Counted from the stretch's first letter, positions 16,439-34,315 are shown. The stretch is DNA of 64,000 nt from Rickettsiales bacterium (GCA_044356525.1 JBIKVZ010000001.1:416562-480561); one strand, 5' to 3'. Notes: a model not told the origin generated them from the sequence alone. A program made the numbers and translations.

Positions 16439-17887
16439 ATGGAACCAAGTCTACAGCTACGCGCTGCGGTCTACGCGCCCCAAGATGTCGTTTATTTAAG
16501 AAATGACGGGCGTATTAGTTTTAGCCCCCGTGGCATCTATCGAGAAAAAAACTCACATGAATTTGTTATTTCACCGAGCGCGGACATTGCCTACTTAGGC
16601 AAAGAAGAATTCCACCCATCACGCAAAAAAGAAACCACCGAGAGGCTGATGCGGATTGCGGCTGAAAAGCTGCCCCACGCCGCAGGCTATGGATCAACAC
16701 TGGTTGATTATTTGGAGGGGCTAATGGAAATTGCCCTCGCGTCGAATATCCTAACCCGCACCGGTGAGCCTGCCGACCAAAAATTAATGTTGGGCCTCTT
16801 AAAGGGCACCACAAAGTTTGATGAGGTTCAGGCTCGTATTGCTGAATTAATGGAAAAAATTCCAGAAGCAGAGCGGCAGGCATTTCTTGAGCCGACAGAA
16901 AAATATGCACTAAACACGGCGGCAAAAGAATTGCATTGGCTGGGCTTTAGTACGGCTGATATTGAGCGTGTGTTACAAGAAGATTCAGAGAATAACGACG
17001 CTACGCGGGCGTTCTTTTCACAACAGTGCTCGAGTGGCTTAGGGGGGCTTGCCACTCAGCAGGTGGCAGCATCATTGTTTGATAAAGTGTCGGGCGCTGT
17101 TGGCCGTGAAATGGGCTTACATGCGCCGATTGCGTTTAGCTTTACTGTCGATAACATGGGCACCCACTCTACAAATGAGACCCATGCGCCGTGGAGCTTT
17201 CCCGCCAGCAATGCCGCGCGGGAAAAGTTGTTGAGCACGTTTGCGGCCTTTGACCCCGATACAAAAAAGCTGCTCGCACAGCCACTGCAGGACCCCAATT
17301 ACAAAGTATTTATGGTGCCTGACATGCACCTTGCCAGCGTGCTACCCCGATTTTTAGATGCAGCCCACGCCTGCCAAGGTGGCCATCATCCGGCGGAGAA
17401 AATAGTGTATGTGGCGACGGAAACGCCAACGCGGGAGAAGCGTAATTTCGACCGTAGTTTTGGCCGCCCGGCACCTTTTTTTGTCAAAGAATTTCAATAT
17501 GAATATATCCCGCACCCGCGTGCGGGTGACATCCGCCACACAACGGCAGAAGAACTAAGTCACGGCGCTATGCATATGGTGTTTGAAAATGCCGGATTTC
17601 CTTATAGCAAAAACGACCGTGCCGCGCGGGCTGGTATTGAAAAACTAGGCGCGCAACTGCAGCAGAACCCAGAGCTACAAGGCTTGCTTCAATATGGCCA
17701 CGGCTTCGATCACAAGGCATTGCTGCACCTTGAAATGCCTGTAAAGGCCCTTGCTTTCCGTGCCGTAGAGGGTGATGCGAAGCTGCGCCAAGCATGGCCA
17801 GAAATGGCAACATTTGTGGAGCGTTTCATGCTTGAGCACGCCAAGAAAATTATGCAGCAGCGCGAAGGCGGCACCGGCGTCGTGTAA
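16439..17887 (+). CDS. hypothetical protein (482 aa)
   Basis: Track ORF with RBS GGGAGAAAATG. No recognisable domain. Confidence 0.55.
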   Translation: MEPSLQLRAAVYAPQDVVYLRNDGRISFSPRGIYREKNSHEFVISPSADIAYLGKEEFHPSRKKETTERLMRIAAEKLPHAAGYGSTLVDYLEGLMEIALASNILTRTGEPADQKLMLGLLKGTTKFDEVQARIAELMEKIPEAERQAFLEPTEKYALNTAAKELHWLGFSTADIERVLQEDSENNDATRAFFSQQCSSGLGGLATQQVAASLFDKVSGAVGREMGLHAPIAFSFTVDNMGTHSTNETHAPWSFPASNAAREKLLSTFAAFDPDTKKLLAQPLQDPNYKVFMVPDMHLASVLPRFLDAAHACQGGHHPAEKIVYVATETPTREKRNFDRSFGRPAPFFVKEFQYEYIPHPRAGDIRHTTAEELSHGAMHMVFENAGFPYSKNDRAARAGIEKLGAQLQQNPELQGLLQYGHGFDHKALLHLEMPVKALAFRAVEGDAKLRQAWPEMATFVERFMLEHAKKIMQQREGGTGVV

Positions 17888-17974
17888 GGGGCGTGCCCCT
17901 GCCTTCGTTAGTAGACAAGCCCCGCCATTCCTGCTACATCAGGGCCATTCTTATGCGTTATACACCCATGGCAG

Positions 17975-18018
17975 GCTCGCGTGGCGGAATTGGTAGACGC
18001 AAGGGACTTAAAATCCGT
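17975..18018 (+). pseudogene. 5' half of an intronless tRNA-Leu(UAA) gene (truncated; no variable/T arm follows)
   Basis: GCTCGCGTGGCGGAATTGGTAGACGCAAGGGACTTAAAATCCGT gives acceptor 5' strand, D arm and anticodon loop CTTAAAA. The stem strand AGGGA does not pair with the following TCCGT. It does pair with TCCCT at 29651 and 31210. Confidence 0.75.
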
Positions 18019-18187
18019 GTTGGCTAACGGCACTGTTTTTAATCGGGCGTGAATTATAGTTGAATTATTGATGGTTAGCAAAAACGACAAAATGAGGTAA
18101 AACTGAAAAATGGAGGCGAAACATCACCGGAACATCACCAGATAGAAATTGGTGTTTATAGGAATGTGTAGTAATCCATAAAATTAA

Positions 18188-18495
18188 GCTCGCGTGGCGG
18201 AATTGGTAGACGCAACGGACTTAGGATATTGAGTGCTCTGGTGGAAATGCCAGAAGTAGAACTGCTCAAATTCGGGGAACGCTCTCAGGTAATGCTGGTG
18301 CCAATCCCGAGCCAAGCCTTGAGGAAACTCAAGGAAGGTGTAGAGACTAGACGGGCAGCACCTAAAACCGCAAGGTCATGGTGAAGGTATAGTCCAGACC
18401 CCAAACATCCTAACGGGTGGCGGCTAAAGCCGTGGTAGGTAAGAAAATCCGTCGGGGGTTTCCCCATACCGGTTCGATTCCGGTCGCGAGCACCA
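18188..18495 (+). tRNA. tRNA-Leu(UAA) interrupted by a group I intron (copy 1)
   Basis: Exon 1 is 18188-18222, exon 2 is 18444-18495. Joined, the exons fold as a class II cloverleaf: GCTCGCG/CGCGAGC acceptor, ACGGA-CTTAAAA-TCCGT anticodon arm, long variable arm, ACCGGTTCGATTCCGGT T arm and encoded CCA. Confidence 0.85.
18223..18443 (+). ncRNA. group I intron (IC3, Azoarcus/cyanobacterial tRNA-intron type), 221 nt
   Basis: Inserted after U34 (5' exon ends ...GGACTT) and ends in G before AAAATCC. The conserved core strings TCAAATTCGGGGAA, CCGAGCCAAGCC and GAAGGTGTAGAGACTAGACGGGCAGCACCTAAAACC match the catalytic core of known bacterial tRNA group I introns as I remember them. Confidence 0.85.
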
Positions 18496-18574
18496 AATTA
18501 TCTAAGTCAATGGCTTACCTAATAACAAAAAACTCTTCTTTTATAGCTAGATTGAACTTCCTGGTTTTTTGGTT

Positions 18575-19420
18575 CTAGCTCCGCTCAGGTTGTGTCGCCA
18601 AAAACTCTCTTACCTCAGCAAGTTTCCTGCGGCTCACAGGAATTGTTTTGTCCATCGACAACACCACACTGCTTTGACCGTTTTTCTCTTTAATGGACTC
18701 TATGTGCTTAGACGCCGCCCAATACGACCGATGCGTTAGAATTCCACTATACTCTGTTGGCAATTGAGCAATCGCGTCTTTTAGGTTATGCAACACCAGC
18801 GTTTCACCCCTCGATGTTACTACGCGCACATAATGCAACTCTGACATCATGTAGATAATATCAGTGCCAATTAGCTTGGCAAATTTAGTGATAAATTCGC
18901 CTTTGCTTTGTGAAGTTGGATCGGCTGGCTTATCAATGGTCACATCCGGCCGGGCTGTTTCATCGGGTTGAACCAAGGTGGTGCTTGAAAAATTAAGCTG
19001 CAAAATGCGCGGCGCATTCATTCCAGCCCATGTCAGTAAAACGGGTGCAAAAACACCGCCGATTTCCTCGAATATAATTTCTTGAGCTTGTGTAAAACTT
19101 TCAACCTGTGACCAATCATCCAGTCCCATCACATAATCAATGCCCAAGGAAAAAGGCAGAAAAACCAGACATCCAAGCAGTCCGGAGAGCAGAATCTTAA
19201 GCCAATCATTCAGCCGGTCAAAAAATGGGCTTTGTTGCAAGCCCACATGAAACAGAATGAGGCACGGCACTAGAAAACCGATTTGAAGTGTCCAGATGAG
19301 AAGCCGTATCAAAAAAGAGCTTCCTGACGTTCCGGCAGGTTCAAGAAAAGTAAATAGCAGGATCAGAATAACACTGAACCAGAAAAAGTATTTTTTCGTT
19401 GAAATATCATTGATTATCAT
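18575..19420 (-). CDS. membrane-anchored LytTR-domain DNA-binding protein
   Basis: 281 aa. N-terminal half has about 5 hydrophobic helices. The C-terminus ELHYVRVVTSRGETLVLHNLKDAIAQLP...THRSYWAASKHI is LytTR-like. Confidence 0.7.
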   Translation of the reverse strand: MIINDISTKKYFFWFSVILILLFTFLEPAGTSGSSFLIRLLIWTLQIGFLVPCLILFHVGLQQSPFFDRLNDWLKILLSGLLGCLVFLPFSLGIDYVMGLDDWSQVESFTQAQEIIFEEIGGVFAPVLLTWAGMNAPRILQLNFSSTTLVQPDETARPDVTIDKPADPTSQSKGEFITKFAKLIGTDIIYMMSELHYVRVVTSRGETLVLHNLKDAIAQLPTEYSGILTHRSYWAASKHIESIKEKNGQSSVVLSMDKTIPVSRRKLAEVREFLATQPERS

Positions 19421-19582
19421 TTGTCTAGCCGCTTATTCGTTGGTGCCTTTCGTGCATAAAACCTGCCGCCCGTGCATAGCCAGTTGATTCATATAAATCC
19501 AGCCAGTTACATGCGCGTGATTAGTTCGCAGTATTACCGCCAATGAATTTAATGCACAACCACTTACTATAGGAACATCACT

Positions 19583-20248
19583 ATGATAAAAAACATTTTT
19601 TTATTATTAATCGCAATGACATTTGCGACATCGCTTTCCAGCACCGCTTTTGCCAATGACAGTGGAAAATGGTACGGAAAACTCTACGGCGGTTCGTCTA
19701 TTTTAGGCGACCAGACGATTAAACAAACCGGTGTTGCCGCTGCGGGTGCTACTGGCAAAAATGACAATGATAGCGGTTTCCTTGCGGGCGGATCTGTTGG
19801 CTACCACTATAACAACAACCTTTCTGCTGAGCTGGCTTGGGATTATATCACGAACGATGCTACCAATAAATTCTCTGACGGCACAAACTTCAATGATGGC
19901 GATTTTTCATCCAGCATTTTCTTCCTGAATGGACGCTATACCTTCGATCCTGTCATGCAAACGAAATTTCGTCCTTATCTGGGTGCTGGTATCGGATACG
20001 TCCAAGAAATCGACATGGACTTAAATGCTGGCGGTGTGGAAACATCCTACAGCAAGAGTGGTGAATTGGCCTATCAGCTCATGGCAGGTGCGTCCTACGC
20101 GATGACTAACAGCATCGATCTAGATGCAGGCGTTCGTTACGTCCGCGTGGATAGCATCAATCTCAAACGTGAAGGTGGCACAGGCGAATTACGAAACGTG
20201 GATTATGATCCTTTGCTCTTCACCATCGGAGCGAGCTACAAGTTTTAG
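19583..20248 (+). CDS. outer-membrane beta-barrel protein (OmpA-like/OmpW-like porin family)
   Basis: Signal peptide MIKNIFLLLIAMTFATSLSSTAFA, alternating-hydrophobicity strands, C-terminal ...GASYKF. Confidence 0.7.
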   Translation: MIKNIFLLLIAMTFATSLSSTAFANDSGKWYGKLYGGSSILGDQTIKQTGVAAAGATGKNDNDSGFLAGGSVGYHYNNNLSAELAWDYITNDATNKFSDGTNFNDGDFSSSIFFLNGRYTFDPVMQTKFRPYLGAGIGYVQEIDMDLNAGGVETSYSKSGELAYQLMAGASYAMTNSIDLDAGVRYVRVDSINLKREGGTGELRNVDYDPLLFTIGASYKF

Positions 20249-20453
20249 ACACGATTTGAATCTTTGGGTGGGAAGTGTTTTGTGCATTGGCTTCCCACCC
20301 AATGGGCGAGCATAAGATTTTGCACAAACTAAAGTTTACGCTCAGCTTATCAGAATAACGCTGGGCACATGGCGCAAGAAAACCGAACCAGAAATACAAT
20401 CGACTGGCTATGTAGTTCATATAGGCACGATTGAAAAATCCTATGGCGATAGA

Positions 20454-20633
20454 ATGATTCTGCGCGATCAGACGGGCAAGCGCATTGGCACCATCGAAGA
20501 AAGTTATGGTGGCAGAAAAACAGTGCGCGATAATCATTACCGAACGCAATATCGCATTGAGCAAGGTTTTGGAGACAGGCTTATTATTCGAGACGCTACA
20601 GGCAAAAGAACTGGCAGTGTTGAATCCAGATAG
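20454..20633 (+). CDS. small repeat-containing ORF (59 aa), possibly a remnant of a longer gene
   Basis: Three repeats of about 20 aa, (S/G)(Y/F)G(D/G)R-x3-RD-x2-GKR-x-G. The same frame is open from 20316 without a start codon. Below the track's length cut-off. Confidence 0.3.
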   Translation: MILRDQTGKRIGTIEESYGGRKTVRDNHYRTQYRIEQGFGDRLIIRDATGKRTGSVESR

Positions 20634-20695
20634 TCACCTGTCAGAATCGGTCGCATGTTCCGATTCTGGATTTTTCACACGCCCGTTATTGTCGG

Positions 20696-22012
20696 ATGAT
20701 CATTGTAAGAGTTGCAGCACTAACCATTAACAAGGAGTGTGTATCCGAGCAACTGATAGGGCTTAAGCAAACGCAGGATTCAATTCAGTCAGATATTTCT
20801 GTATTAGCCGCAGTAACTTCTGGGCAATTAGACGAAGATCTAACAATTTATTCAGCAGTACCATATTTAATGGAGGGGAGCTCCGAAGAGCTAAACGCAG
20901 AAGTTGCTGCGATATTAAACCCTCTTTTGGTGAAGTTTCGTGGCGAAATCTTGGGCAATCTCAAGCCACTTAAAACTAAGTACGATAATGCTCTCGCCTC
21001 TGTAACAGTAGATATCGCTAAACTTGAGCCAGAGCTAAAACCCATTCTTGATAAAATAGCAAAATCTGCCCCTTTGCGAGAAATGGCTGCCGCTGTTAAA
21101 GCTGAGAAAGAAAAGCTCATTACAGTTCTGACGCTAGAAGCCGATATCAGTAAACTGAAGGCAAAGATAGTTTCTTCAGCCGAAGTTATTAATGGATTTA
21201 TTGACAAACGCTTGGAATTGGCTGGCGCAGTAATGCGAGTGATGACAGAGCACCCAGTTTCACGTGGTGACGACCAGCTCAACATTGACATCAAGCCATT
21301 TCTAAAGAGCGCACATATTCAATCCTTGCTTAAGGACCGCATAAAATATCAGAGCAATCTAGAAATTCGTGAGATTGTGCAAACAGCAGAGCCTAAAGAT
21401 ACTGACATCGATGGATATAGGAAGGCAGTAGAGTTGCATGTAAAACAGTCCATTGAAGAGAAGCTAGAATTTAAGGGTGAATATAATCTTTCAGGTGTCT
21501 TGCAAGAGGTCTTAGGTAACGCCTTTTACCTTAATTATGATTTAATGTTACGTGGTGATTCTTTCCGCATAATGTCTCCTGGAAAACGCGCGCTTGCCTT
21601 ATTAAGAATCATTGTTGAACTAGATTCTAGCGAACACCCAATTATTTTAGATCAGCCAGAAGACGATTTAGATAACCGCTCAATTTATGAAGGACTTGCC
21701 ACATACCTAAAATCAAAAAAACAATCTCGTCAGATTATTGTTGTTACTCACAATCCTAATGTCGTTGTCGGTGGTGATAGCGAATATGTTGTTGTTGCTA
21801 ATCAGACTGGTCAAGAGTCAAATCAAGATAATAGAGAATTCAGGTTTGATTATGTATATGGCGGTCTAGAATTGAGCTTCTTTGATGATGCGATACCCTG
21901 GGTTTTGGAACAAAAAGGTATTAAGGAGCATGTTTGCGAAATTCTAGATGGAGGGAAAGACGCTTTCCAGCGACGCGAACAGCTCTACTCCACACTTAAA
22001 GGCAGCACTTAG
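20696..22012 (+). pseudogene. 5'-truncated SMC/ABC-type (TrlF-like) AAA ATPase: coiled-coil plus C-terminal half only
   Basis: ABC signature-like SPGKRALALL, Walker B/D-loop PIILDQPEDDLD and H-loop VVTHNPN are present. No Walker A P-loop occurs anywhere in the ORF or upstream. Confidence 0.55.
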
Positions 22013-22174
22013 AGCGATTGCCTGTCAAAGGGTCAAATTTATGCACCGGTTTATTCGCCTAGAAATGATCTTGAAAGATTTCAATCTGTCCTTTGACACA
22101 AACTCAATCATCTTGACCAACACCGCACTTTTGATTATTGCTCAGAAATCAAACAGCAATAATTGAGGTGTGGT

Positions 22175-22690
22175 ATGCCGCGAGGTGGAAGACGTAAAGG
22201 ATCTGGAAGACCCGCAGGAACCGGTCAGTTTGGAGCTCCGACAAAGTCCATTCGAGTGCCTGTTGGCATGGTCGATAATGTTTTGGAGTATGTGCGGCTG
22301 AAGGGCTTTGCCCTCCCGCTTTATTCCTGCGCGGTATCGGCAGGGTTTCCTTCACCGGCTGATGATCACATGGACGGCAAGCTGGACTTGAACGACCACC
22401 TGATTAAGCACCCCGCCGCCACCTTCTTCGTGAAGGCTACTGGTGAATCAATGATCGGCGCGGGAATTCATGATGGCGATATTCTCATCGTGGATCGCAG
22501 TGTTGAAGCAAAGAACGGTAAAGTGGTAATTGCCGCCATTGATGGTCAGCTCACAGTGAAACGGCTTTCCACCCGACGCGGCAAATCTTGGCTGATGCCT
22601 GAGAACGAAAAATACCAGCCGATTGAGATTAAAGAAGGCAACGATGTTGTCATTTGGGGCGTAGTAACAAACGTCATCCACGCACTGTAG
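22175..22690 (+). CDS. umuD: UmuD-like S24 peptidase (Pol V accessory subunit) with basic N-terminal extension
   Basis: AGFPSPADD, GESM (Ser nucleophile) and VIAAIDGQLTVKRL (Lys). ATG 22175 follows RBS GAGGTG. The N-terminus MPRGGRRKGSGRPAGTG is extra. Confidence 0.85.
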   Translation: MPRGGRRKGSGRPAGTGQFGAPTKSIRVPVGMVDNVLEYVRLKGFALPLYSCAVSAGFPSPADDHMDGKLDLNDHLIKHPAATFFVKATGESMIGAGIHDGDILIVDRSVEAKNGKVVIAAIDGQLTVKRLSTRRGKSWLMPENEKYQPIEIKEGNDVVIWGVVTNVIHAL

Positions 22691-22699
22691 GGGTATCTC

Positions 22700-23968
22700 A
22701 TGCCCATCTTTGCCTTGGTTGATTGCAACAATTTCTACGCCTCCTGCGAGCGCGTTTTCAATCCGAGTCTGGAAGGCAAGCCAATCGTCGTTTTGTCGAA
22801 TAACGATGGCTGCATCATTGCCAGGTCGAATGAAGCCAAAAAGCTCGGCATTCCGATGGGAGGCGCATTTTACTCGCAGAAGGATGTTTGCAGAAAACAC
22901 GGCGTGCATGTGTTCTCGTCAAACTACCAGCTGTATGGCGATATGTCGCAGCGTGTGATGGAAACATTGCGGCACTTTGTGCCGGATATGGAGGTGTATT
23001 CGATAGATGAAGCCTTCCTGTGTTTAGATGGTTTCAGCAGCCGCGATTTGAATGACTACGCGCTAGAAATCAGAAGTGCTGTAAAGCAGTGGACTGGGGT
23101 TCCTGTATCGATCGGCATCGCGCCAACCAAAACACTTGCAAAGGTTGCCAACCACATTGCCAAGAAGCGCACCACTTCAGGTGTTTACAGCCTGCTTACG
23201 CGTGATGAGCAAAATGCCGCCCTTGCCAATCTTGATGTCGAAGAAATATGGGGTATCAGCTCACGCTGGGGCGCACAGCTTAAACAGCGCGGCATTCATA
23301 CTGCCCTACAGCTAAGAGAAGCCAATCCTAAGCTGATACGTCAGCACTTCAGCGTTGTGGGTGAGCGTATCGTAGAAGAACTCCGTGGCAACTCCTGCAT
23401 GCCGCTAGAGATGCACGTTGCGGCTCGAAAGAACATTCTATCGTCCAAGTCTTTTGGGAAGCTGGTTGCTGATCTGCCATCGATTGATGAGGCCTTGGCA
23501 AACTACGCTGCCCGCGCGTGCCTAAAGCTGCGGAAGCAAAAGAGCCGCGCCCAAGGGATTTACGTTTTCGTCCGAACGAATCCTTTTCGAGTTCAGGAGC
23601 CACAGTATCGGAATGGCATGTCCATAGGGTTTTCGGTTCCCACCAGCGACACACGTGCAATCGTTAAAGCCGCAAGCCAGTGTTTGTATCGAATCTATCG
23701 CCCAGGTTTCCGCTACCACAAAACGGGAATTATGCTGCTCGATCTAATTCCAGAATCACACGTGCAGCAAAACCTGTTTTTGAACGTCGATCATAGTCAC
23801 AGCGACAAGCTCATGGTGACGCTGGATAGTCTCAATGAGCGCATGGGTAAAAATACCGTCTTTCTGGCATCGCAGGGCATAAAGCGTGGTTGGCAGATGC
23901 GCTGCGATAATCGATCCCCGCGATATACGACAAATTGGGACGAGTTGGCATTTGCGCGCTGCATTTAG
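22700..23968 (+). CDS. umuC: Y-family DNA polymerase V catalytic subunit
   Basis: MPIFALVDCNNFYASCERVFNP, VVLSNNDGCIIARS, SIDEAFL. Confidence 0.9.
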   Translation: MPIFALVDCNNFYASCERVFNPSLEGKPIVVLSNNDGCIIARSNEAKKLGIPMGGAFYSQKDVCRKHGVHVFSSNYQLYGDMSQRVMETLRHFVPDMEVYSIDEAFLCLDGFSSRDLNDYALEIRSAVKQWTGVPVSIGIAPTKTLAKVANHIAKKRTTSGVYSLLTRDEQNAALANLDVEEIWGISSRWGAQLKQRGIHTALQLREANPKLIRQHFSVVGERIVEELRGNSCMPLEMHVAARKNILSSKSFGKLVADLPSIDEALANYAARACLKLRKQKSRAQGIYVFVRTNPFRVQEPQYRNGMSIGFSVPTSDTRAIVKAASQCLYRIYRPGFRYHKTGIMLLDLIPESHVQQNLFLNVDHSHSDKLMVTLDSLNERMGKNTVFLASQGIKRGWQMRCDNRSPRYTTNWDELAFARCI

Positions 23969-24022
23969 GCGTATGGTTTAGGGGTAACGTACAGTATCAT
24001 CGGCATAAAGATTGTAGGATTT

Positions 24023-24589
24023 ATGAAGGCACTTAATCAAAGAATTACAGGATGGTGTGCAGCAGTAATGGCGCTGATACTGCCCCTATCGCCGTGCCTT
24101 GCAAAAGACGAAAGAAAAATTCCTGTTCCAGTCGAGGTATGGAGAGATGTTTCTACCAAAGAGCTGACGATTGCTGGCATTGGTAAAGCCAAAGACGGTG
24201 ACACCCTCTCCATAGACGGCGTTTTTGATGTGCGCCTGATTGGAATTGATGCGCTGGAAAGAAAGCAGACCTGCTCAATGAATGATGAAGCGTGGAAATG
24301 TGGCGAAGAAGCAAAAGCACTACTTGCAGAACTGGTCGATAATAAGCGGGTCGAATGTGAGAACCGAAAGAAAGAGAAATATGGCCGTTTTCTGTCAGTT
24401 TGTAGAGTTGGCGATATCGTTTTGAATGATGAAATGGTCAGACGCGGCTACGCAGTAGCCTACATGGTTCCTGATTATGTGGATGCCGAAGAAGAAGCAA
24501 AGCTCTCACAAGTGGGCGCATGGGCTGGTGATTTTTTAATTCCTGATGAATGGCGAAAGCGCAAACGCCAGAAAGTACGAAGTTTATGA
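24023..24589 (+). CDS. secreted thermonuclease (SNase-like) family nuclease
   Basis: Signal peptide. DGDTLSIDG..VRLIGIDALE, YGRFLSVCRV and NDEMVRRGYAVAY match the staphylococcal-nuclease fold pattern. Confidence 0.8.
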   Translation: MKALNQRITGWCAAVMALILPLSPCLAKDERKIPVPVEVWRDVSTKELTIAGIGKAKDGDTLSIDGVFDVRLIGIDALERKQTCSMNDEAWKCGEEAKALLAELVDNKRVECENRKKEKYGRFLSVCRVGDIVLNDEMVRRGYAVAYMVPDYVDAEEEAKLSQVGAWAGDFLIPDEWRKRKRQKVRSL

Positions 24590-24909
24590 GCATATCGGTA
24601 AATCAGAAAGAGTTGATTAAGGCACTCCAGCCACCAAAAATGAAGCGCGGGCAGATTCCAAAAATCACTGAGATTCGCGGTTCATTTTCAAGTGACTTGA
24701 TAATCACTGCGCCCGCCCACGAATCCCGCTTACAGGGAAAAGGTACATTCCCTTATCATGTGACCGCCAATGCGCGCATAATACATGAAATGGTGAAGAA
24801 GCTACCGAAGTCAGAAAATGTTGAGTTAGATACACTAGAAAATCAGATTCTATTTCGTATCGGTAGCTTTGTTTTGAAGTTTAATGCGGTTGAAATTCGC
24901 AGCCTGTAA
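24586..24909 (+). CDS. hypothetical protein (107 aa)
   Basis: ATGA overlap with the nuclease stop suggests translational coupling. No recognisable motif. Confidence 0.45.
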   Translation: MSISVNQKELIKALQPPKMKRGQIPKITEIRGSFSSDLIITAPAHESRLQGKGTFPYHVTANARIIHEMVKKLPKSENVELDTLENQILFRIGSFVLKFNAVEIRSL

Positions 24910-25621
24910 AACGAAAAAAAGCCCCGAACCTTTCGGCTCGGGGCGATTGCTAGGGAGGGATAATAACTTCTGATCTGGCTGGATTGTTGGGCATCAACGC
25001 GTCATTGTTGAGCTTGGTGTTAAGCGTGACAATGCCGATGCAAAAGACGTGGTAGCGGATGAAATGGAAGCTGCGTGAGAGAGACCGAAGCCGGATGGCC
25101 GAATGAGGCTGTCCGGCTTTTTTTAGTGATTCGGTTATTCCAAAGAGGCTGCGCAAAATCCTGCAAGTGCGAGCAATTACAATGCCTTGCTGTGATTGTG
25201 TCAGAATTGGAAAATTCCTACCAATCCCACTTTTGAGGGTGTTTTTGACCAAAAGTAGGGTCATTTAGGGGTAAAATCATGTCCCAGTGATGTACCAACA
25301 GGTACCGAAATTCGGAAATAAGGCAAAAAAAGGTGGGCGGAAAGCAATCACGCTTCCCGCCCGAGCTGCACTGGGAGGATAACCGGCCAATAAAAAACCC
25401 AGCGTGGGGATGCCAGCTGGGTGGGGTACGTAATTTTCCGATTATGCTAAGATCATAGCTAACGGCGTGACGCTATGCAAGTGTTTTTATTGTAGTTCAA
25501 TATGTTAGCAAGTTTGCAAACGGTGACAATCCTGCAATTCACGTCATCAACGGGCATAACTATCTGGGTTTCAAAGCATATTATCCTTGCATTTTGAACA
25601 TTTAATCATCAGAATACTAGA

Positions 25622-26782
25622 ATGACATTGCCCCGCCACACACTCACTCAGCAGATTGAACATGCGCTTTCGCGCAATCCCGTGGTGTCGCTTATTGGCC
25701 CTCGTCAGTGTGGCAAGACAACACTCGCACGCGCCATTGGAAAATCTCAGGACGCAACCTTCTTTGATCTTGAACACCCTGTTGATGCCGAGCGGCTAAA
25801 AAATCCGCTCACCGCGCTCGAACATTTGCGAGGATTAGTGGTTATCGACGAAGCGCAGTTGGAGCCAGCCTTATTTCCCGTGCTGCGCGTGCTGGCTGAC
25901 CGCACACCACTTCCTGCACGGTTCTTACTTCTGGGCAGTGCTTCTCCTGATTTGGCGAGCAACATTTCAGAATCACTGGCTGGCAGGATTCACTTCGTGA
26001 ATATGTCTGGGTTCAACCTGCATGAAGTGGGTGCTCCGCATTGGCGAGAGCTTTGGCATCGCGGCGGTTTTCCTCGCTCATATCTGGCAGAATCAGATGC
26101 AGATAGCTTCAAATGGCGTGAGGATTTTATCGCGACATTTTTGGAGCGCGACCTGCGCCGCCTTGGAGTCATGGTGGCACCAGAATCGCTACGTCGGCTA
26201 TGGATGATGATCGCGCATTATCATGGGCAAGTGGCAAAGCTCTCTGATATTGGGCGGTCGCTGGGAGAAAACCACACCACGATCCGCCGTCATCTGGATA
26301 TTCTGGAAGGTGCATTGGTGCTCCGCCAGCTTCAGCCTTGGCATGAGAATGTTGGCAAACGGCAAGTCAAATCGCCGAAAGTATATGTGCGCGATACGGG
26401 TATTCTGCACACGCTACTTGGTTTGGGAAATGCCGCCACGATTGAATCACACCCAAAACTTGGTGCAAGCTGGGAAGGGTTCATCACCGAGCGAATCATA
26501 GAGATGTTCGGTGATCGTAATTGTATGTTCTGGGCAACCCAAGCGGGAGCGGAGCTTGACCTGCTGGTATTGCATCAGGGCAAACGCTACGGCTTTGAAA
26601 TTAAATACGCCGATGCGCCAAAAACCACCAAGTCCATGCGCGAGGCAATTAAAACGCTTGAACTCACCAAGCTGTTTATTGCGTATCCAGGCAGCAAAAG
26701 TTATGTGGTGGATGAACATATTGAAGCAGTTGGCATTGTGGATTTAGAAGCAAAGCTGAAAAACCTCATTGCATCATCATAA
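25622..26782 (+). CDS. AAA-family ATPase with DUF4143-type C-terminal domain
   Basis: Walker A GPRQCGKTTLA, Walker B VVIDEAQ. The C-terminal EIKYADAPK segment is typical of the AAA_14/DUF4143 family. Confidence 0.8.
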   Translation: MTLPRHTLTQQIEHALSRNPVVSLIGPRQCGKTTLARAIGKSQDATFFDLEHPVDAERLKNPLTALEHLRGLVVIDEAQLEPALFPVLRVLADRTPLPARFLLLGSASPDLASNISESLAGRIHFVNMSGFNLHEVGAPHWRELWHRGGFPRSYLAESDADSFKWREDFIATFLERDLRRLGVMVAPESLRRLWMMIAHYHGQVAKLSDIGRSLGENHTTIRRHLDILEGALVLRQLQPWHENVGKRQVKSPKVYVRDTGILHTLLGLGNAATIESHPKLGASWEGFITERIIEMFGDRNCMFWATQAGAELDLLVLHQGKRYGFEIKYADAPKTTKSMREAIKTLELTKLFIAYPGSKSYVVDEHIEAVGIVDLEAKLKNLIASS

Positions 26783-27359
26783 ATCTGTCTTCAGCGTTGG
26801 CGCTGAGACCTGTTACGCTTACGTTGCTGCTCTTTGTACATGGCTTCGTAGATGCTGGATAGATCGTCCAGTACGAGGCTGATGAGCTTCTTGCCTGAGC
26901 GCCTTGGCCACTGCGTCCATTTTTCCAGCGCGTCCACCGCGATGCCCTCTATGCACACCTGATAGGCATCCAATCAATGTCCAGCGGAACAGCCAAGATT
27001 GTTGATATTCGTGATGCCAAAAAGAATGAGAAATGAAACATCACCGAAACATCACCGGAACATCACGAGGGATAGAAATCGATAGTATTTGATAGCAAGC
27101 AGTAGTGATAGGGCAAGCCAAAGAATTTACGAAAAAGCCTTTATATGTAGTCACTTGGATGGTTCTATAGGTGTCTGTAGGAATGTGTGAAAAAATCATT
27201 TTGTTCGTCTTAAAAGGACACAAAATCCTTTTCGTCTAAGGTGGATTGTGTTTGTAAATGAAGGCGTTATAAAAGGAGGGCAAGGCGGATTTTGTTCCGA
27301 AACATCACCGGAACATCACCGAAAAAAGAGTGGTGTAACAGTTTGATTTTAATAGATAA

Positions 27360-27658
27360 GCTCGCGTGGCGGAATTGGTAGACGCAACGGACTTAAGACA
27401 AAAGGATTGAGTGCTCTGGTGGAAATGCCAGAAGTAGAACTGCTCAAATTCGGGGAAGCCTGTAACATGGTAATCCCGAGCCAAGCCTGAGAGAAATTTC
27501 AGGAAGGTGTAGAGACTAGACGGGCAGCACCTAAAACCGAAAGGTCATGGTGAAGGGATAGTCCAGACCCCAAACGGGTGGCGGCGAAAGCCGTGGTAGG
27601 TAAGAAAATCCGTCGGGAGTTAAATCCTGTACCGGTTCGACTCCGGTCGCGAGCACCA
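27360..27658 (+). tRNA. tRNA-Leu(UAA) interrupted by a group I intron (copy 2)
   Basis: Exon 1 is 27360-27394, identical to copy 1. Exon 2 is 27605-27658, with a different variable arm (CGGGAGTTAAATCCTGT) and a T loop TTCGACT. CCA is encoded. Confidence 0.85.
27395..27604 (+). ncRNA. group I intron, 210 nt (diverged paralog of 18223-18443)
   Basis: Same conserved core (TCAAATTCGGGGAA, CCGAGCCAAGCC, GAAGGTGTAGAGACTAGACGGGCAGCACCTAAAACC). Indels and substitutions are confined to peripheral stem-loops. Confidence 0.85.
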
Positions 27659-27714
27659 ACTTGTTTTGAAATTTAAGTGTTGATTTTCTAAATAAGAGAT
27701 GTATAAACACCTCT

Positions 27715-27826
27715 GTCTTAAGGGAGTAACCTGCTCTCCAGTTTGGAGAATGGACGCGTCAACATACTTGCCACAGTGCTGGCATGGCGTGTCCCACCAG
27801 TAAATCGGTGCGGTGAGACTTACGAC
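27715..27826 (+). ncRNA. yybP-ykoY-like manganese riboswitch (tentative)
   Basis: AAGGGAGTAAC..., ...CGTCAACATAC... and ...GGTGAGACTTAC resemble the conserved GGGGAGUAG / UUGACAUAC / AGAGACC blocks. The closing helix is GTCTTAAG/CTTACGAC. It lies directly upstream of a UPF0016 gene, a classic regulon member. Confidence 0.55.
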
Positions 27827-27903
27827 GAAGTGGTTCGCTCAGGGTTGGGCGGAAACACTTTGTCGTATGGTCATCAACCATCGCCCAACCCACTGGTGTT
27901 TAT

Positions 27904-28464
27904 GTGCAAGTACTTCTTTCATCCGCTTCCCTCGTTGCTGTTGCCGAAATGGGCGATAAAACACAGCTGCTTGCGCTCATGCTTGCAGCGCATTATGGCC
28001 GCGCCATACCCATTGTTCTGGGCATTACGCTCGCCACCACACTCAATCACCTTGCTTCCGCTTGGCTTGGTCAGACCATTGGCGTGAATTTCAACTCCCC
28101 CCAGTTTTCACTGGCAGTTGGTGTTCTCTTCATCGGTATCGGGCTGTGGTTGCTTAAGCCAGACACGCAAGATTCCATCAGCAATAAGTTCCTGCGTTTT
28201 AGCCCATTTGTAGCTAGTTTCATCGCCTTTTTTCTGGCAGAGATTGGTGACAAAACACAGCTCGCCACCATTGCGCTTGCCAGCGAATACCAAGCCCTGC
28301 TGTGGGTAACGCTTGGCACCACGATAGGTATGCTCATCACCAATATTCCTGCCGTTTTTCTCGGCGAGGCATTCATCGCCAAAATACCCATGAAGCTGGT
28401 TCGCAATCTCGCATCGCTTGCCTTCATCGGGTTTGGCTTTTATCAACTCATTCAATCATTTTAA
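27904..28464 (+). CDS. UPF0016 (GDT1/TMEM165/MneA) family cation (Mn2+/Ca2+) transporter
   Basis: Two E-x-GDKTQ motifs (VAEMGDKTQLLA, LAEIGDKTQLAT) in a 6-TM protein. GTG start. Confidence 0.85.
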   Translation: MQVLLSSASLVAVAEMGDKTQLLALMLAAHYGRAIPIVLGITLATTLNHLASAWLGQTIGVNFNSPQFSLAVGVLFIGIGLWLLKPDTQDSISNKFLRFSPFVASFIAFFLAEIGDKTQLATIALASEYQALLWVTLGTTIGMLITNIPAVFLGEAFIAKIPMKLVRNLASLAFIGFGFYQLIQSF

Positions 28465-28478
28465 GTAAGGAGACTTCC

Positions 28479-29465
28479 GTGAATTATTCGTTACATCAAA
28501 CCATTCAATCTGAGGCACCTTGCAAGCTGTGCGGTGGCCATGAACTGCAAGTGATCGGTACGCAGGGAAGGCATTTCCAGAAACTCACCACCACCATCTG
28601 TACGGGTTGCGGTCTGATTCATAGCTACCCCATCCCAACCAAAGAGGAACTAGACGAATATTACAGCAAGCAATATCGCAGCGATTACAAGGGTGCATAC
28701 ACGCCCCAGCGCAAGCATATCCTTCGTTATTCGCGTGGGGCGATGCACCGCATTAAGCAGCTGCTTCAGTTTGCAAGCAAAGGCCAGAAGCTGCTGGATG
28801 TAGGCAGTGGTAGTGGTGAGTTTGTGTATATCGCATCGCTGTCTGGCTTTGATGTGCATGGGCTCGAGCCTCACGAAGGCTATTCAGAATATACCCGCAA
28901 AACCTTTGGCGTCCCCATCATCACCGCGCCGCTTGAAAAGGCAGATATTGCGCCTGAAAGCTATGACGTCATTACACTCAACCATGTGCTCGAGCACCTT
29001 CATTACCCGCTAACTTCACTTGGTTATTTAAACCGCTGGCTCAAAATGGGCGGGCTGCTCGCAGTCGATGTGCCCAATATAGCGTCAACACATCATTCCC
29101 CCATCAATCGCTTCCACTACGCACATTTTTATAATTTCAACCATGATACGCTCAAAGCTATGCTTGAGAAATCAGGTTTCACAGTGGAAGCACATCCTGA
29201 CTTTAGTGGCACCACGCTATTCGCCAGAAAGACAGGCGCTCCTGATCCTGAACGTATCATCGCAATGCCAGAGAATTATCAGCGCTTGCTGCATCTGATG
29301 TCGAAAGAAGTGGCAACCGAAAACTACCGTAAGAAAAAACCACTCAAGCGGTTCTTAAGCAAATGCCGACGTTATCCACTGGAGTTCATCGAAGCGATGC
29401 TATTTTGGAATCCCCGTCGCATTGTCAAAAGAGAATTCAAAAAGGCAAATGGTAGTTTTATGTAG
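28479..29465 (+). CDS. class I SAM-dependent methyltransferase with N-terminal CxxC..CxxC zinc ribbon
   Basis: Motif I LLDVGSGSGEF, then ITLNHVLEHL. GTG 28479 follows RBS TAAGGAGA. The track start 28302 would overlap the transporter gene. Confidence 0.75.
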   Translation: MNYSLHQTIQSEAPCKLCGGHELQVIGTQGRHFQKLTTTICTGCGLIHSYPIPTKEELDEYYSKQYRSDYKGAYTPQRKHILRYSRGAMHRIKQLLQFASKGQKLLDVGSGSGEFVYIASLSGFDVHGLEPHEGYSEYTRKTFGVPIITAPLEKADIAPESYDVITLNHVLEHLHYPLTSLGYLNRWLKMGGLLAVDVPNIASTHHSPINRFHYAHFYNFNHDTLKAMLEKSGFTVEAHPDFSGTTLFARKTGAPDPERIIAMPENYQRLLHLMSKEVATENYRKKKPLKRFLSKCRRYPLEFIEAMLFWNPRRIVKREFKKANGSFM

Positions 29466-29496
29466 TGGTTTGGATAAGGTAAGTGGATGTATGAGC

Positions 29497-29700
29497 CACT
29501 TTTCTCAGGGACACTGGCGGGACACTAGAGGGTAAATAATGAGCACAAATGGCAATAGGTGGCAATCAAGCGAACCTTCTGTAACCCGCTGTGGCGTTGT
29601 TGTGTATCGTTATGGATTGTTGTGGCGTGTTTTATACAAAGGACTTAAAATCCCTCGAAGGTTAAACTTCGTGCCGGTTCGATTCCGGCCGCGAGCACCA
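29497..29700 (+). repeat. Repeat A copy 1: conserved ~145-bp arm plus 3' half of tRNA-Leu(UAA)
   Basis: Tandem GGGACACT x2, then GGGTAAATAATGAGCACAAATGGCAATAGGTGG..., and from 29641 GGACTTAAAATCCCTCGAAGGTTAAACTTCGTGCCGGTTCGATTCCGGCCGCGAGCACCA. Confidence 0.85.
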
Positions 29701-29923
29701 CGTCCTTCGTTAACCAAAAATTAAACATCTTCTGCTATATTCTACTTATAAAACAGGTGGGTGTGGATGATTTTTGATTGGTCGCGCTCGGGGGTGGGTG
29801 AAACGAGGTTGTTGTAGACCACTAAGAGGCCACATGGAAAGAAAAGATGCAATACAGTCCGTAAGGAAAGCCATCTTGCAGGCATAGAGGGAAAATTCTC
29901 TCGCCATTTCGGCCATTGATCTG

Positions 29924-31036
29924 GTGGATAAAGCGCTGTGGGAGGAATTCCGCATGAAGGCCCAGTTCGGGTATGAGCAAACTTTTCGTATCGTTCCTGA
30001 AGAGCCTGGCCGTGGGAAGAAAGGGCCGCTGGACGCTAGGAATATCGAAAGGGAATTTCTGGGGCTGGAGGCAAGTGGAAGGCCGCTTCCGAAGCAAGGA
30101 AAAGAATTCCGCCCCATCATTGTGAAATTCCACTACGACAACGAACCGCAGAAGTTTGAAGCAGTAACAAACGTCGGCTCGGCCAAGCAGGTGGCGCGGT
30201 GGGTGGTGATGTTCAGAGAGCTCGCCACTGCGCTGGCACCGGAATATCCTTCCACAAAAACAGCCTCTTTCCAAGGCTCCCATGTGTTGGACCTTACTTC
30301 GCCGTTTGGTGGGCCTATGCGGAAATATACGAATACTAACGGCATCCATGTGAACTTCAGCATCCTCTTCAATGGTGAAAACGGATTTGAGAACCGCGCC
30401 TTACAGATGCATACAATCCATGGCGTGAAGACCTTGTCAGAAGAAACAACGCTTATGGTAGCGCTCTATCCCAATGACTACGAGCGGTATAAAATCTCGG
30501 GCACACACAAGCCAAACTATATCGGGGTAACGGAAGGGAAGGATGATAAGTCCCTTAGGGTGGTAGACGAAGGAAGGTTGAGGCCGCACAAGCGCCGCGT
30601 GGAGGACAGAGTTCCGAGCTCCAGCGCTAATCCGTATTACGCCAGTCTCAGAGTGCTGGTGGGGATGTATCTGGGCCTGGGGGAAAACGTAGCGCTGGAA
30701 CAGGACGGCGAGAAACCGAAGCTAGAAGTTGCTCCTGCTGAATACGGCTATCTTGAAAAGGCCGCCAAATCCGAGGGAGGATTGCCAGCATATCTGAAAA
30801 GTTTCTTTGTTGCCCCTAAAGAAGTGCCGGTAAAAGAAGAAGCCCCCCTCCATGTCATTCCAAAAGATATCGGGGCGGCGATAGAAGAATTCAGGGAAGG
30901 CAAAATACTACGCGAATCCCTTAATGAACTCAGCATGAAATACGGCGAGGGTAGTCCGGTTGGCGACCTTGTTCATGCTCAGGTGTTGCAACGCGCCAGA
31001 GATAATGCGCACGAAGGGCCTACCAAAAGCATGTAG
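29924..31036 (+). CDS. divergent glutamine synthetase-like (GS catalytic domain) protein
   Basis: NGIHVNFSILF (compare GS GxGxHxNFS) and RVEDRVPSSSANPYYASLRVLVGMYLGL (compare GS R-x-E-x-R-x-P-x3-NPYL). An in-frame ATG at 29834 is separated from the ORF by a TAG at 29885-29887. Confidence 0.55.
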   Translation: MDKALWEEFRMKAQFGYEQTFRIVPEEPGRGKKGPLDARNIEREFLGLEASGRPLPKQGKEFRPIIVKFHYDNEPQKFEAVTNVGSAKQVARWVVMFRELATALAPEYPSTKTASFQGSHVLDLTSPFGGPMRKYTNTNGIHVNFSILFNGENGFENRALQMHTIHGVKTLSEETTLMVALYPNDYERYKISGTHKPNYIGVTEGKDDKSLRVVDEGRLRPHKRRVEDRVPSSSANPYYASLRVLVGMYLGLGENVALEQDGEKPKLEVAPAEYGYLEKAAKSEGGLPAYLKSFFVAPKEVPVKEEAPLHVIPKDIGAAIEEFREGKILRESLNELSMKYGEGSPVGDLVHAQVLQRARDNAHEGPTKSM

Positions 31037-31056
31037 AGACTGTAAGCGAAAAAGCC

Positions 31057-31259
31057 CCATTTTCTAGGGACACTACAGGGACACTAGAGGGTAAATAATG
31101 AGGACAAAGGGCAATAGGTGGTAATCAAGCGAGCCTTCTGTAATCCGCCGTGGCTTTGTTAAGTAGCGTTATAGATTGTTGTGGCGTGTTTTATGCAGAG
31201 GACTTAAAATCCCTCGAAGGTTAAACTTCGTGCCGGTTCGATTCCGGCCGCGAGCACCA
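31057..31259 (+). repeat. Repeat A copy 2 (arm plus 3' half of tRNA-Leu)
   Basis: Aligns with copy 1 along its full length with scattered substitutions. The tRNA 3' half (31200-31259) is identical to copy 1. Confidence 0.85.
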
Positions 31260-31385
31260 TAAGCCCAATTCGATTCTCTTGGTTTCAATTAAGCACAGAC
31301 GCAAAAAGAAAGCGGCCCTTTATAGAACGACAGATAAAATGGGATTTCTCGGTTGGCCTATTATTAATAGGTAGTGATAATTAAA

Positions 31386-31976
31386 TTACCGGTCTCTACT
31401 CGGTTTTTTTGGCGTATCATCTGGGCCATCTGAGCCGTATTTTCCTCTTAGAGCATCTTCCCTATCGCGGTAATTACGGTGGACATTGTCAACCATACCA
31501 TCAAAACGTTTGAGCGCCTCACGATCAACATAATCGGGGAGCGACTTATCTTTATGATTGCTATATTCATATACATATCCATGTGCCTCTGGTGCATTTT
31601 GCATCCAACTATTATCGGGGTTAAAATCACGAGCTCTTGGAAAATTTAGTTGTTTCCTGGAAAGTCCATCATTATTGCCCAAATTATCCAAGTAATTATC
31701 AATTTGCTTTCTTTCGACCGCTGTTTCTACGCTGTGTTTATAAACATCTTTTATCATCTCGCCAGCCTTACGCAGGAGCGTAAGGTTCTCAATGTGTTCT
31801 TCAACACTAGCGGGTGTTGCGAATTGGATTTTCACGGTTCCTCGACCAGGAGATTCTACAAGTGCTGTTCCCATGTCAAATCCAGCGTGGCCCAGTACTT
31901 TGTTCCAGTGCTCAACGCGTATAACAGAGTCTGCTCTATCGCGCTCTTCCCACATTTTATTGGCCCAACCGTTCAT
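31386..31976 (-). CDS. hypothetical protein (196 aa)
   Basis: Track ORF, third in a tightly packed three-gene minus-strand set. No motif recognised. Confidence 0.5.
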   Translation of the reverse strand: MNGWANKMWEERDRADSVIRVEHWNKVLGHAGFDMGTALVESPGRGTVKIQFATPASVEEHIENLTLLRKAGEMIKDVYKHSVETAVERKQIDNYLDNLGNNDGLSRKQLNFPRARDFNPDNSWMQNAPEAHGYVYEYSNHKDKSLPDYVDREALKRFDGMVDNVHRNYRDREDALRGKYGSDGPDDTPKKPSRDR

Positions 31977-31985
31977 TCTTCTCGC

Positions 31986-32306
31986 CTATGCCGAGGATGC
32001 ATTACCAGAATTAGAAGGTTTATAATCGCGTTCAGAAGCAACAGAAACACTCAGCGGCGATTTTTTGAAATCGAAAGTGGAATCAGGATACACATCGGCC
32101 AGTTTTGGTCTGGAAAAAAAGAGAGCATCTGATGTTCTCCTTTTTTCTTCTTCAGGAACAGCGGCTTCAAAATCTAGCAGCCTTCTGAACTCGCCGATAT
32201 AGGCCCGCTCCAGAATCCTGTTTCTGTTCTTAGACAAAGATTCACCGGGCTGAATATACTCAGCAAGAATGTTATTAGCTTCTGAAGAAGAGTCTGATTT
32301 TGCCAT
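31986..32306 (-). CDS. hypothetical protein (106 aa)
   Basis: Track ORF, 9-bp gap to the next gene. No motif recognised. Confidence 0.45.
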   Translation of the reverse strand: MAKSDSSSEANNILAEYIQPGESLSKNRNRILERAYIGEFRRLLDFEAAVPEEEKRRTSDALFFSRPKLADVYPDSTFDFKKSPLSVSVASERDYKPSNSGNASSA

Positions 32307-32360
32307 GATAATTCAAAAGTAAGTTTCTCTAGGTATGGAGCTTGGTTGTGGCTTTGTTAA

Positions 32361-33119: not shown

Positions 33120-33378
33120 AGATTGCCTCCTAATTCAGGCTATACCCCGCCTTATTATTCTATGCGCAAGTAGTTAAAGAATGGTTAAAAATTAGCGCCT
33201 ATCGCATCTATTGTTATTTTTGAGGGCAATAGTGGGGGCGGCAGGTATGCCGCTGGCACGATAAGAAGATTAACCTACGCCAAGCGATGCAATCATCGGC
33301 CTGAGAATGATGGGCGCACCTTGTTCAATAGAAGGGGACTGCTTGAAGAACCCTAAGAGCTAATTGTCATTTATTTAG

Positions 33379-34293: not shown

Positions 34294-34315
34294 ATTTTTA
34301 CACAAGGAGAGCTTT

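Follow-up and report, generated by a model that had tools for sequence, protein, structure and literature searches.

Introduction

Genomic islands that target tRNA genes are known, in their textbook form, to keep the target gene working by rebuilding it. Classical islands of this kind restore a recombinant tRNA gene from an attP-borne fragment and form tandem arrays (PMC7192596, PMC4383910), and the term 'gene replacement' has been given to integrative elements exemplified by the element encoding transfer-messenger RNA (tmRNA) in the Rhodobacter tmRNA gene and by hrpB islands (PMC7192596). Here, we describe a tandem integrative array in a tRNA-Leu(UAA) gene, located in a 64,000-nucleotide stretch of DNA (GCA_044356525.1, JBIKVZ010000001.1:416562-480561; this whole stretch is referred to as the window) from an uncultured freshwater alphaproteobacterium labelled Rickettsiales, in which the outer element has probably replaced the host gene by an island-borne tRNA-Leu(UAA) gene containing a group I intron.

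The classical tRNA-Leu(UAA) intron of cyanobacteria and plastids, Leu.3Ug, has the form CUU/a...g/AAAA (Williams 2020 preprint; PMC4476775). The survey by Williams lists bacterial tRNA introns of group I by the thousand, Leu.3Ug and Leu.3Cg among them, and draws no link to islands. In the archaeal Caldiarchaeum tRNA-Thr locus, a 5' fragment, a 1.8-kb recombinase element, and an intron-containing tRNA have been described (Sugahara 2012, PMC3293823). The replacement principle is therefore known (tmRNA), and no description was found for a tRNA with a group I intron. Literature linking group I intron tRNAs to integrative islands was likewise not found in a search that left most subscription journals outside, so that an earlier description is possible.

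A host tRNA-Leu(UAA) gene split by site-specific insertion

A sequence-only reading of the window had regarded two distant segments as the halves of one intronless tRNA-Leu(UAA) gene, and the sequence is as it described. The host 5' half (17975-18013, plus strand) reads GCTCGCG-TG-GCGGAATTGGTAGACGC-A-AGGGA-CTTAAAA, comprising the acceptor 5' strand GCTCGCG (17975-17981), the D arm, the stem strand AGGGA (18002-18006), and the loop CTTAAAA (18007-18013), and is followed by TCCGT and non-tRNA sequence without a T arm. The 3' half, consisting of TCCCT, a long variable arm, the T arm, and CGCGAGC-A-CCA, is located at 29651-29700 and is repeated identically at 31210-31259. No tRNA-Leu was called in the window by ARAGORN, and neither ARAGORN nor Rfam recognized a tRNA at 17950-18140 as it stands. 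The ARAGORN run on the in silico-joined halves, suggested by the same reading, returned an 89-nt tRNA-Leu(taa). The true partner of the host 5' half is the distant TCCCT...CGCGAGC half, in agreement with the long-distance AGGGA-TCCCT pairing that had been proposed. TCCGT stands beside the host 5' half because the base at this junction is of the island type, the island tRNA genes described below having the anticodon stem ACGGA/TCCGT.

The junctions had also been said to share one sequence. Exact copies of GGACTTAAAATCC occur three times in the window, at 18004, 29641, and 31200, one per junction; at up to two mismatches, seven matches were counted against 1.43 expected from shuffles, and none of 100 shuffles reached seven. 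Core copy 1 (attL) occupies 18004-18016, and core copy 2 together with the first 3' half (TCCCT, variable arm, T arm, and CGCGAGCACCA) occupies 29641-29700, both on the plus strand. Each 3' half terminates a 207-nt direct repeat (29494-29700 and 31053-31259; 90% identical), and a third, more diverged copy (33376-33530) ends after GGACTTA.

The comparison with related genomes that the sequence-only reading had asked for yielded an empty site. Scanning one genome per species with the 5'-half sequence identified a metagenome-assembled genome (MAG) labelled Rickettsiales (L007; L numbers denote the loci fetched for comparison), in which a segment with 85% identity to 17882-18016 of the window, that is, to the upstream flank and the 5' half, runs on into an uninterrupted tRNA gene. 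The 3' part of this gene is 95-97% identical to 29637-29700 and 31200-31262, and the intact gene scores 60.3 bits as a tRNA (Rfam). attL matches the left part and attR the right part of the L007 attB, with the switch lying within the 13-bp core. In another locus (L032), a homolog of IMPDH lies directly upstream of an intact tRNA-Leu. Among the fetched genomes, the nearest relatives of the window's bacterium are MAGs carrying the label Rickettsiales. Site-specific insertion with crossover in the anticodon stem-loop, as had been proposed, is supported by the core copies and by this empty site.

It had further been concluded that the host gene was destroyed. This holds in that no 3' half follows the 5' half, so that the host gene itself was not rebuilt; the loss of function that it implied does not follow, as the insert carries complete tRNA-Leu(UAA) genes.

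Intron-containing tRNA-Leu(UAA) genes in the insert

A repeat search detected two extra copies of the tRNA 5' part, at 18185 and 27357, each with a 3' part ~210-220 nt further on. They belong to two complete tRNA-Leu(UAA) genes on the plus strand. Copy A (18188-18495) starts 171 nt after the junction and consists of exon 1 (18188-18222), a 221-nt group I intron (18223-18443), and exon 2 (18444-18495). Copy B (27360-27658), located 9.2 kb further on, consists of exon 1 (27360-27394), a 210-nt group I intron (27395-27604), and exon 2 (27605-27658). The introns of copies A and B scored 57.6 and 55.8 bits, respectively, with the Rfam model Intron_gpI (RF00028; gathering score 50). Both sit between U34 and A35 (CTT / AAAA), with U before the 5' splice site and G as the last intron base, and the exon ends of the two copies are ...GGACTT / ...GGTAAG / AAAATCCGT. 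We take the intron core sequence to be IC3-like, as in the Azoarcus and Anabaena introns. Both copies were called as tRNA-Leu(taa) by ARAGORN when spliced in silico, and likewise from the genomic sequence with introns allowed (i(36,221) for copy A). Copy B is ~84% identical to copy A, differs from it in the variable arm, and is 95% identical to the gene in L026.

An alignment of 38 intron-containing tRNA genes (the two in the window and 36 from other loci) was analysed with RNAalifold, which recovered the tRNA stems (acceptor, D, anticodon, and T), with the intron enclosed by the anticodon stem, as well as intron helices read as P1, P2, P3, P4, P6, P8, and P9. Compensatory double changes were present in 41 of the 78 pairs. 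U.G forms the splice-site pair in 33 sequences and C-G does so in four; 37 of the 38 introns end in G. A promoter-like site (TTTATA-18-TAAAAT, 18155-18184, plus strand), known from a consensus match only, ends 3 nt upstream of copy A. The covariation and the promoter-like site indirectly suggest that the island tRNA genes are functional, and the island tRNA is predicted to be spliced and used. UUA accounts for 10% of the Leu codons of the host genes in the window.

The same module behind other host 5' halves

The module at ~17980-18495, containing the core, the leader, and copy A, recurs at 99.4% identity in L013 and at 98.3% in L023, where the host 5' halves are different, with acceptor GCGGACG and another D loop in L013 and with acceptor GCTCTCG and stem CCAGA in L023. 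Neither of these host acceptors can pair with the 3' strand of the island tRNA, CGCGAGC. Because the same module follows differing host 5' halves, the complete tRNA is part of the insert and moves together with it, and the island tRNA replaces the host gene rather than rebuilding it. The layout of the window is also found, at lower identity, in L004 (78% identical; host acceptor GCCCGCG) and L027.

In L023 (1331-3164), the 520-nt module lies directly between a CinA-like gene and an RNase H gene, the GC content being 57% upstream, 48% in the module, and 58-64% downstream, and neither cargo nor a host 3' half was found in the visible 1.8 kb. L013 (69-2635) resembles L023 in that the module, again without cargo, is flanked by housekeeping genes (for Bax1-I, MetRS, and a Na/H exchanger), and in both loci the flanking GC content is host-like. 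In L026, a CinA-like gene is followed by a B-type intron-containing tRNA gene with no scar. Such a pattern would be expected if islands leave an intron-bearing allele behind.

A separate observation concerns L022, where a tRNA-Leu(UAA) 5' half (acceptor GCTCGCG; position 7649, reverse strand) is fused at the anticodon loop to a 3' part that ends in CCTAGGCACCA and cannot pair with it. This locus resembles a rebuild-type island whose 3' half originated in another host.

A related family of integrase-encoding islands

In L037 and L016, a putative, divergent tyrosine integrase of 395-405 amino acids (aa) is encoded between a displaced 5' half and an intron-containing tRNA gene. The window does not encode this integrase. 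Its versions in L037, L016, and L033 share 67-76% identity, and the copy in L003 is truncated. Among 27 members scanned, 20 matched the Pfam Phage_integrase family over the whole catalytic domain (best E-value, 3e-6) and 24 matched Phage_int_SAM_5, the SAM-like N-terminal domain; three members scanned singly against Phage_integrase gave 19.9 bits, 21.5 bits, and no match, respectively (cut-off, 27.1 bits). R233, R329-H330, and Y360-Y361 are invariant. Sequence searches of PDB and NCBIfam gave no match, and hhalign detected nothing between this family and the P4-like integrase.

At least 421 relatives of the integrase were found in metagenomes, and the following locus counts refer to the best 80 of these. 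In 65 of the 80 loci, the region upstream of the integrase gene contains a tRNA-Leu 5' half that has been displaced and stops at the anticodon loop. The acceptor stems of these halves are of many kinds, and the halves from the first motif scan start ~166-198 nt before the gene. A complete tRNA gene follows the integrase gene directly in 59 of the 80 loci, and ARAGORN called 58 of these 59 as tRNA-Leu: ~32 Leu(UAA) with a 201-253-nt intron, 6 intron-containing Leu(CAA) (Leu.3Cg), 18 intronless Leu(CAA), and 2 Leu(UAG). One further intron-containing gene (L048) was miscalled as Phe(GAA). The displaced and island-borne genes share the anticodon UAA, with an intron in the latter, at 17 loci and the anticodon CAA at 16, and there is one cross case; their acceptor stems agree in only 1 of 36.

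Matching 3' halves were searched for with a strict pattern for the T arm and acceptor. One whole island (L071) contains, in order, a 5' half (GCGGACG...AGGGA-CTTAAAA), the integrase gene, a tRNA-Leu(UAA) gene whose intron measures 204 nt, cargo, and an arm bearing TTACACA repeats, and its right end, GGACTTAAAA-TCCCT...CGTCCGCACCA (TCCCT...CGTCCGC), is the host 3' half that matches this 5' half, at a distance of 6.2 kb. Because IMG/VR holds only one relative of the integrase, these elements are probably islands rather than prophages.

L033, L049, L050, L065, L077, and L108 contain, 100-260 nt upstream of the integrase gene, an attP-like junction with TTACACA-type repeats on either side of a core such as ATCGGACTTAAAAGCCGAT and no 5' half, and may represent circular forms, copies on plasmids, or junctions within tandem arrays. 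In L098, L099, L112, and L114, the tRNA-Leu(CAA) gene has a group I intron after C34 (Leu.3Cg, with its unusual C-1). One member of the family, L059, is of the rebuild type.

Crossover position and proposed mechanism

attL is of the island type by position 39-41 (CTTAAAA/GC in the integrase family and TCC/GTG in the window, the latter limit being set by the CCAGA stem of L023), and attR is of the island type up to position 28, by which the crossover can be confined to positions 29-38. The intron site (34/35) lies in the middle of this interval. A target of the GGA-CTTAAAA-TCC type, in which a 7-nt loop is flanked by inverted stem bases, is usual for a tyrosine integrase. As no cognate integrase was found for the window's element (see below), a tyrosine-recombinase mechanism is suggested for it by analogy.

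The array comprises ~4 att-bounded segments, read as E1a, E1b, E2, and E3, and runs to ~33530. We consider it likely that its outer element represents the replacement of the host gene by the island-borne intron-containing tRNA. Elements would have integrated site-specifically and in tandem into the tRNA-Leu(UAA) gene by recombination in the anticodon stem-loop. The inner segments E2 and E3 are of the classical type: a copy of the 3' half stands at the start of each, and their insertion would have restored the gene. E1a plus E1b (18017-29640), the outer and presumably most recent part, has no 3' half at its left end and carries a complete intron-containing tRNA gene instead; the segments probably arrived in this order. 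The host halves stay split, at distances of 11.6 and 13.2 kb, and UUA decoding would be supplied by the island gene after predicted self-splicing. Carrying a whole tRNA would remove the need to match the host acceptor stem, and an element that does so could thus enter any host with a conserved anticodon stem-loop. With the intron inside the crossover core, the replacement gene would have no contiguous core of its own and, because the intron splits the core, should be no substrate for the inserting integrase. The integrase-less elements of the window may be fixed remnants or may have been moved in trans. The immunity role of the intron is proposed less firmly than the independence from the acceptor stem.

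Structure of the inserted array

The 11.6 kb between the two halves is not one island but the first part of the tandem array. E1a (18017-27215) opens, directly after the core, with a terminator-like hairpin GTGTTGGCTAACGGCAC plus a T run (18017-18043, plus strand) that is conserved at 98-99% in L013 and L023 and is comparable to GTGTC-TAAC-GACAC in L004. It is followed in the leader by two direct iterons, (R)AACATCACC, located 11 bp apart (18119-18138, plus strand) and representing candidate arm-type or operator sites, and then by the promoter-like site, copy A, cargo, three further iterons, and a degenerate core. The iteron AACATCACC has 11 matches in the window, against 0.77 expected; eight are on the plus strand, and seven of these eight cluster at 18119-18138, 27036-27066, and 27300-27319. 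The same iteron arrangement is present in the leaders of L004 and L027. The leader of the window module has the signature GTGTTGGCTAACRGCACTGTTTTTAATCGGGCG, and the leader pattern had no match in the viral-contig collection.

The E1a cargo (18575-26973) includes genes for a LytTR regulator, an outer-membrane protein (OMP) β-barrel, an ABC/SMC-like ATPase, UmuD, UmuC, an SNase nuclease, small open reading frames (ORFs), a DUF4143 ATPase, and DUF6456; no recombinase was detected among them. The UmuD/UmuC pair is located at 22163-23968, and the DUF4143 ATPase (25622-26782) matches the PADLOC candidate defence family PDC-S01 (E = 2e-80). The E1a/E1b junction (27036-27319, plus strand) consists of three iterons (27036-27066), the degenerate core GGACACAAAATCC (27216-27228), and two iterons (27300-27319), and appears to be a decayed hybrid att site.

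E1b (27229-29640) contains these two iterons, copy B, cargo (27709-29465, plus strand), and an arm with AGGGACACT repeats. The cargo is composed of a Mn riboswitch-like leader, a GDT1 cation transporter gene, and a methyltransferase gene. The riboswitch-like element (yybP-ykoY type, Mn2+; 27709-27897) scored 42.5 bits, just under the gathering score of 45, and lies directly upstream of the GDT1-family transporter gene (27904-28464). The right-end arm (P arm copy 1; 29494-29640, plus strand), found by repeat search, contains AGGGACACT and CGGGACACT repeats.

E2 (29651-31199) opens with the 3' half and closes in the same kind of arm; its cargo region (29701-31052, plus strand) holds a glutamine-synthetase-like gene (29924-31036). 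A recent duplication of host DNA was considered as the source of E2 and rejected, since the identity of this gene to its paralog on the host side (44674-46014) reaches only 26%. The plus-strand stretch 31053-31259 comprises P arm copy 2, core copy 3 (31200-31212), and the 3' half in its second copy (31210-31259). E3 (31210-33530) also opens with the 3' half and contains minus-strand ORFs of unknown function (from 31260 onwards) and P arm copy 3 (33376-33530); its final core breaks off at GGACTTA. At this junction (33524-33600), the truncated core gives way to TGCGGTAGTCCAGCGCC..., which is neither a tRNA 3' half nor the leader.

No integrase was detected in 18014-33530 by Pfam searches with the larger ORFs down to 119 aa or by tblastn with four integrases. 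The right-end arm pattern GATTGTTGTGGCGTGTTTTATNNNNNGGACTTA gave no match in the metagenome-contig and viral-contig collections and is present in one JGI contig (L045), indicating that the collections scanned do not hold this population. No homologs of the E1a right end or of the sequences after the 3' halves were found in the other fetched loci.

Evaluation of the replacement and of alternative explanations

Several points count against the reading proposed here. A second tRNA-Leu(UAA) gene may be present elsewhere in the genome, and the comparison genomes are mostly MAGs, in which mis-binning of mobile DNA can occur. No cognate integrase was found for the AACATCACC iteron type, and none is encoded in the window. 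The repeats of the right-end arm at 29494-29640 (AGGGACACT) differ from those of the left leader, and the arm has no homolog in the other fetched loci; for these two reasons, E1b may be a chimera of two element types. Other points bear on the intron, which could simply have been inherited. CAA-type relatives have mostly intronless replacement genes (16 against 6) with an intact loop, which weakens the immunity idea, and in at least two of them, L091 and L092, the core of the replacement gene is identical to that of the target over the positions compared. In L089 (9816-9860), GACGG, a stem characteristic of tRNA-Leu(CAA) genes borne by islands, is present in the displaced 5' half, which shows that a replacement gene was itself invaded.

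The alternative that survives best, and to which we give a nearly even chance, is that the replacement is real and the intron has no role in it: the captured tRNA-Leu(UAA) gene would already have contained the classical intron, and self-targeting would be avoided otherwise or be irrelevant. Beyond the intronless CAA-type genes and the identical cores of L091 and L092, it is favoured by the acceptor stem GCGGGCG shared by island tRNAs of the integrase family, which suggests common descent, and by the intron-containing tRNA-Leu genes of L026 and L018, which look resident. Against it, every UAA replacement gene seen has the intron (none intronless among the ~32 calls of the integrase family and about a dozen genes of the window family), the intron site falls in the middle of the crossover interval at positions 29-38, and most of the intronless CAA replacement genes are distinguished from their targets by the loop-closing pair or by loop position 32. 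A wider proposal can be made only tentatively, and on balance we lean against it: the islands may spread the tRNA-Leu(UAA) group I intron among distant bacteria by destroying the resident intronless gene and putting the intron-bearing allele in its place, the intron being kept since a split target is immune to the integrases of the island itself and of its rivals. The stages observed are an island with cargo (the window and L071), a module with a 5'-half scar (L023 and L013), and an intron gene alone (L026).

It is very unlikely that the outer element is an island of the rebuilding type whose copy of the 3' half, beside the host 5' half, has decayed and was tolerated thanks to another tRNA-Leu(UAA) gene. 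Rebuild-type elements do exist in the same array (E2 and E3) and in the integrase family (L059), but the sequence after the core is a conserved leader (98-99% in three genomes) with hairpin, iterons, and promoter-like site, and, of the 65 integrase-family loci with a displaced half, most likewise lack the 3' half.

An assembly artefact, i.e. a false join caused by repeated tRNA-like sequences, is extremely unlikely. The region does contain five tRNA-Leu-derived repeats and the 207-nt direct repeats, and contigs from short reads stop within it (L002 at 18214; L046 covers only 31230-33418). Against this, a 32-kb JGI contig covers 6439-35110 of the window, its two fetched pieces having 100 and 99.99% identity, a 77-kb contig from a different sample agrees with it and with the window in gene order, two Logan runs/assemblies match the window at 100%, and the identical attL junction stands beside the 5' halves of other hosts in L013 and L023. 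With junctions and gene order recurring in independent assemblies, the chimera that the sequence-only reading had named as a possible refutation was not borne out.

A true split tRNA gene of the Nanoarchaeum type, with halves transcribed separately and joined in trans, can be practically dismissed, since beyond the geometry of two perfectly fitting halves nothing points to it, the duplexes of the sequence after the 5' half with those before the 3' halves (-16.0 and -16.4 kcal/mol) are no better than those of shuffles (means, -17.7 and -17.9 kcal/mol), relatives have an intact gene, and, to our knowledge, the archaeal splicing endonuclease pathway is absent from bacteria.

Neighbouring integrases and other features of the window

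A separate P4-type island (35169-44149) adjoins a tRNA-Gln gene (44076-44149, minus strand). It contains genes for a P4-like 421-aa integrase (42684-43949), an AlpA-like protein, a second tyrosine recombinase of 362 aa (39755-40843), and a type III restriction-modification system (res, 35169-37799; mod, 37813-39720). No direct repeat linked to the tRNA-Gln gene was found at seed 12 in 31000-48000. The 362-aa and 421-aa integrases were considered as cognate enzymes of the tRNA-Leu array and rejected: they are unrelated to the integrase of the related islands, and there are no core or arm repeats nearby. A P4-like integrase gene with 49% identity to the 421-aa one is located directly downstream of the intron-containing tRNA-Leu(UAA) gene in L018 (5170-6858), where another island type seems to use the intron gene as an ordinary 3'-end target. 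ARAGORN also called a tRNA-Ala(agc) at 17026-17098, inside a 482-aa ORF (16439-17887); the Rfam tRNA model gave no match, and the call is likely to be a false positive.

Significance and comparison with known systems

At the locus described here, an essential decoding function would have been handed over to the island, and freedom from acceptor-stem matching would explain why one module is found behind several host 5' halves. The islands may also represent a DNA-level route for the horizontal spread of the tRNA-Leu(UAA) intron, the patchy distribution of which has long been debated, requiring neither a homing endonuclease nor reverse splicing. Randau and Söll are said to have put forward, in 2008, the idea that tRNA introns protect genes from integrating elements. 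If the islands are indeed vehicles of the intron, they would provide bacterial evidence for this old idea, and the system allows a direct experimental test of an anticodon-loop intron as a shield of a tRNA gene from integrases. In practical terms, intron-blind annotation pipelines report no tRNA-Leu(UAA) whatever at such loci.

The array resembles classical tRNA islands (Islander/TIGER, tyrosine integrases) in its tRNA-gene target, its symmetric core in the anticodon stem-loop, the repeats at the ends, the displaced fragment, and the tandem arrangement; a split target with a far displaced fragment and an empty site in relatives are both present. It differs from them in that the outer element has no fragment at the junction and leaves the host gene split, a tRNA restored at the junction being seen only for E2 and E3, and in that the elements of the window contain no integrase. 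Integrase-less, att-flanked, cis-mobilizable elements related to ICESt1 and ICESt3 of Streptococcus occur in tandem arrays formed by accretion. The segments of the window are similarly bounded by att sites, devoid of recombination genes, and stacked at one target; unlike in those arrays, no integrase-bearing partner is present in the window, and mobilization in cis or in trans is only possible.

As in Leu.3Ug, the introns of the window lie between U34 and A35, with U-1.G, omega-G, and exons that form tRNA-Leu(UAA). Unlike their cyanobacterial and plastid counterparts, they reside on mobile DNA, are non-cyanobacterial, and stand beside the relic of the intronless gene that was replaced. The order of parts in L037, L016, and L071, with a tRNA of the same identity, is that of the Caldiarchaeum tRNA-Thr locus; the latter differs in belonging to Archaea, in having protein-spliced introns, in being a single locus, and in having been interpreted as a route of intron gain and not as a replacement strategy. 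Like the 'gene replacement' elements (PMC7192596), the window element carries a complete homolog of a target that is disrupted and not restored. It differs from them in that the target is a tRNA gene, that a group I intron occupies the crossover site, and that its design is repeated across a large environmental family.

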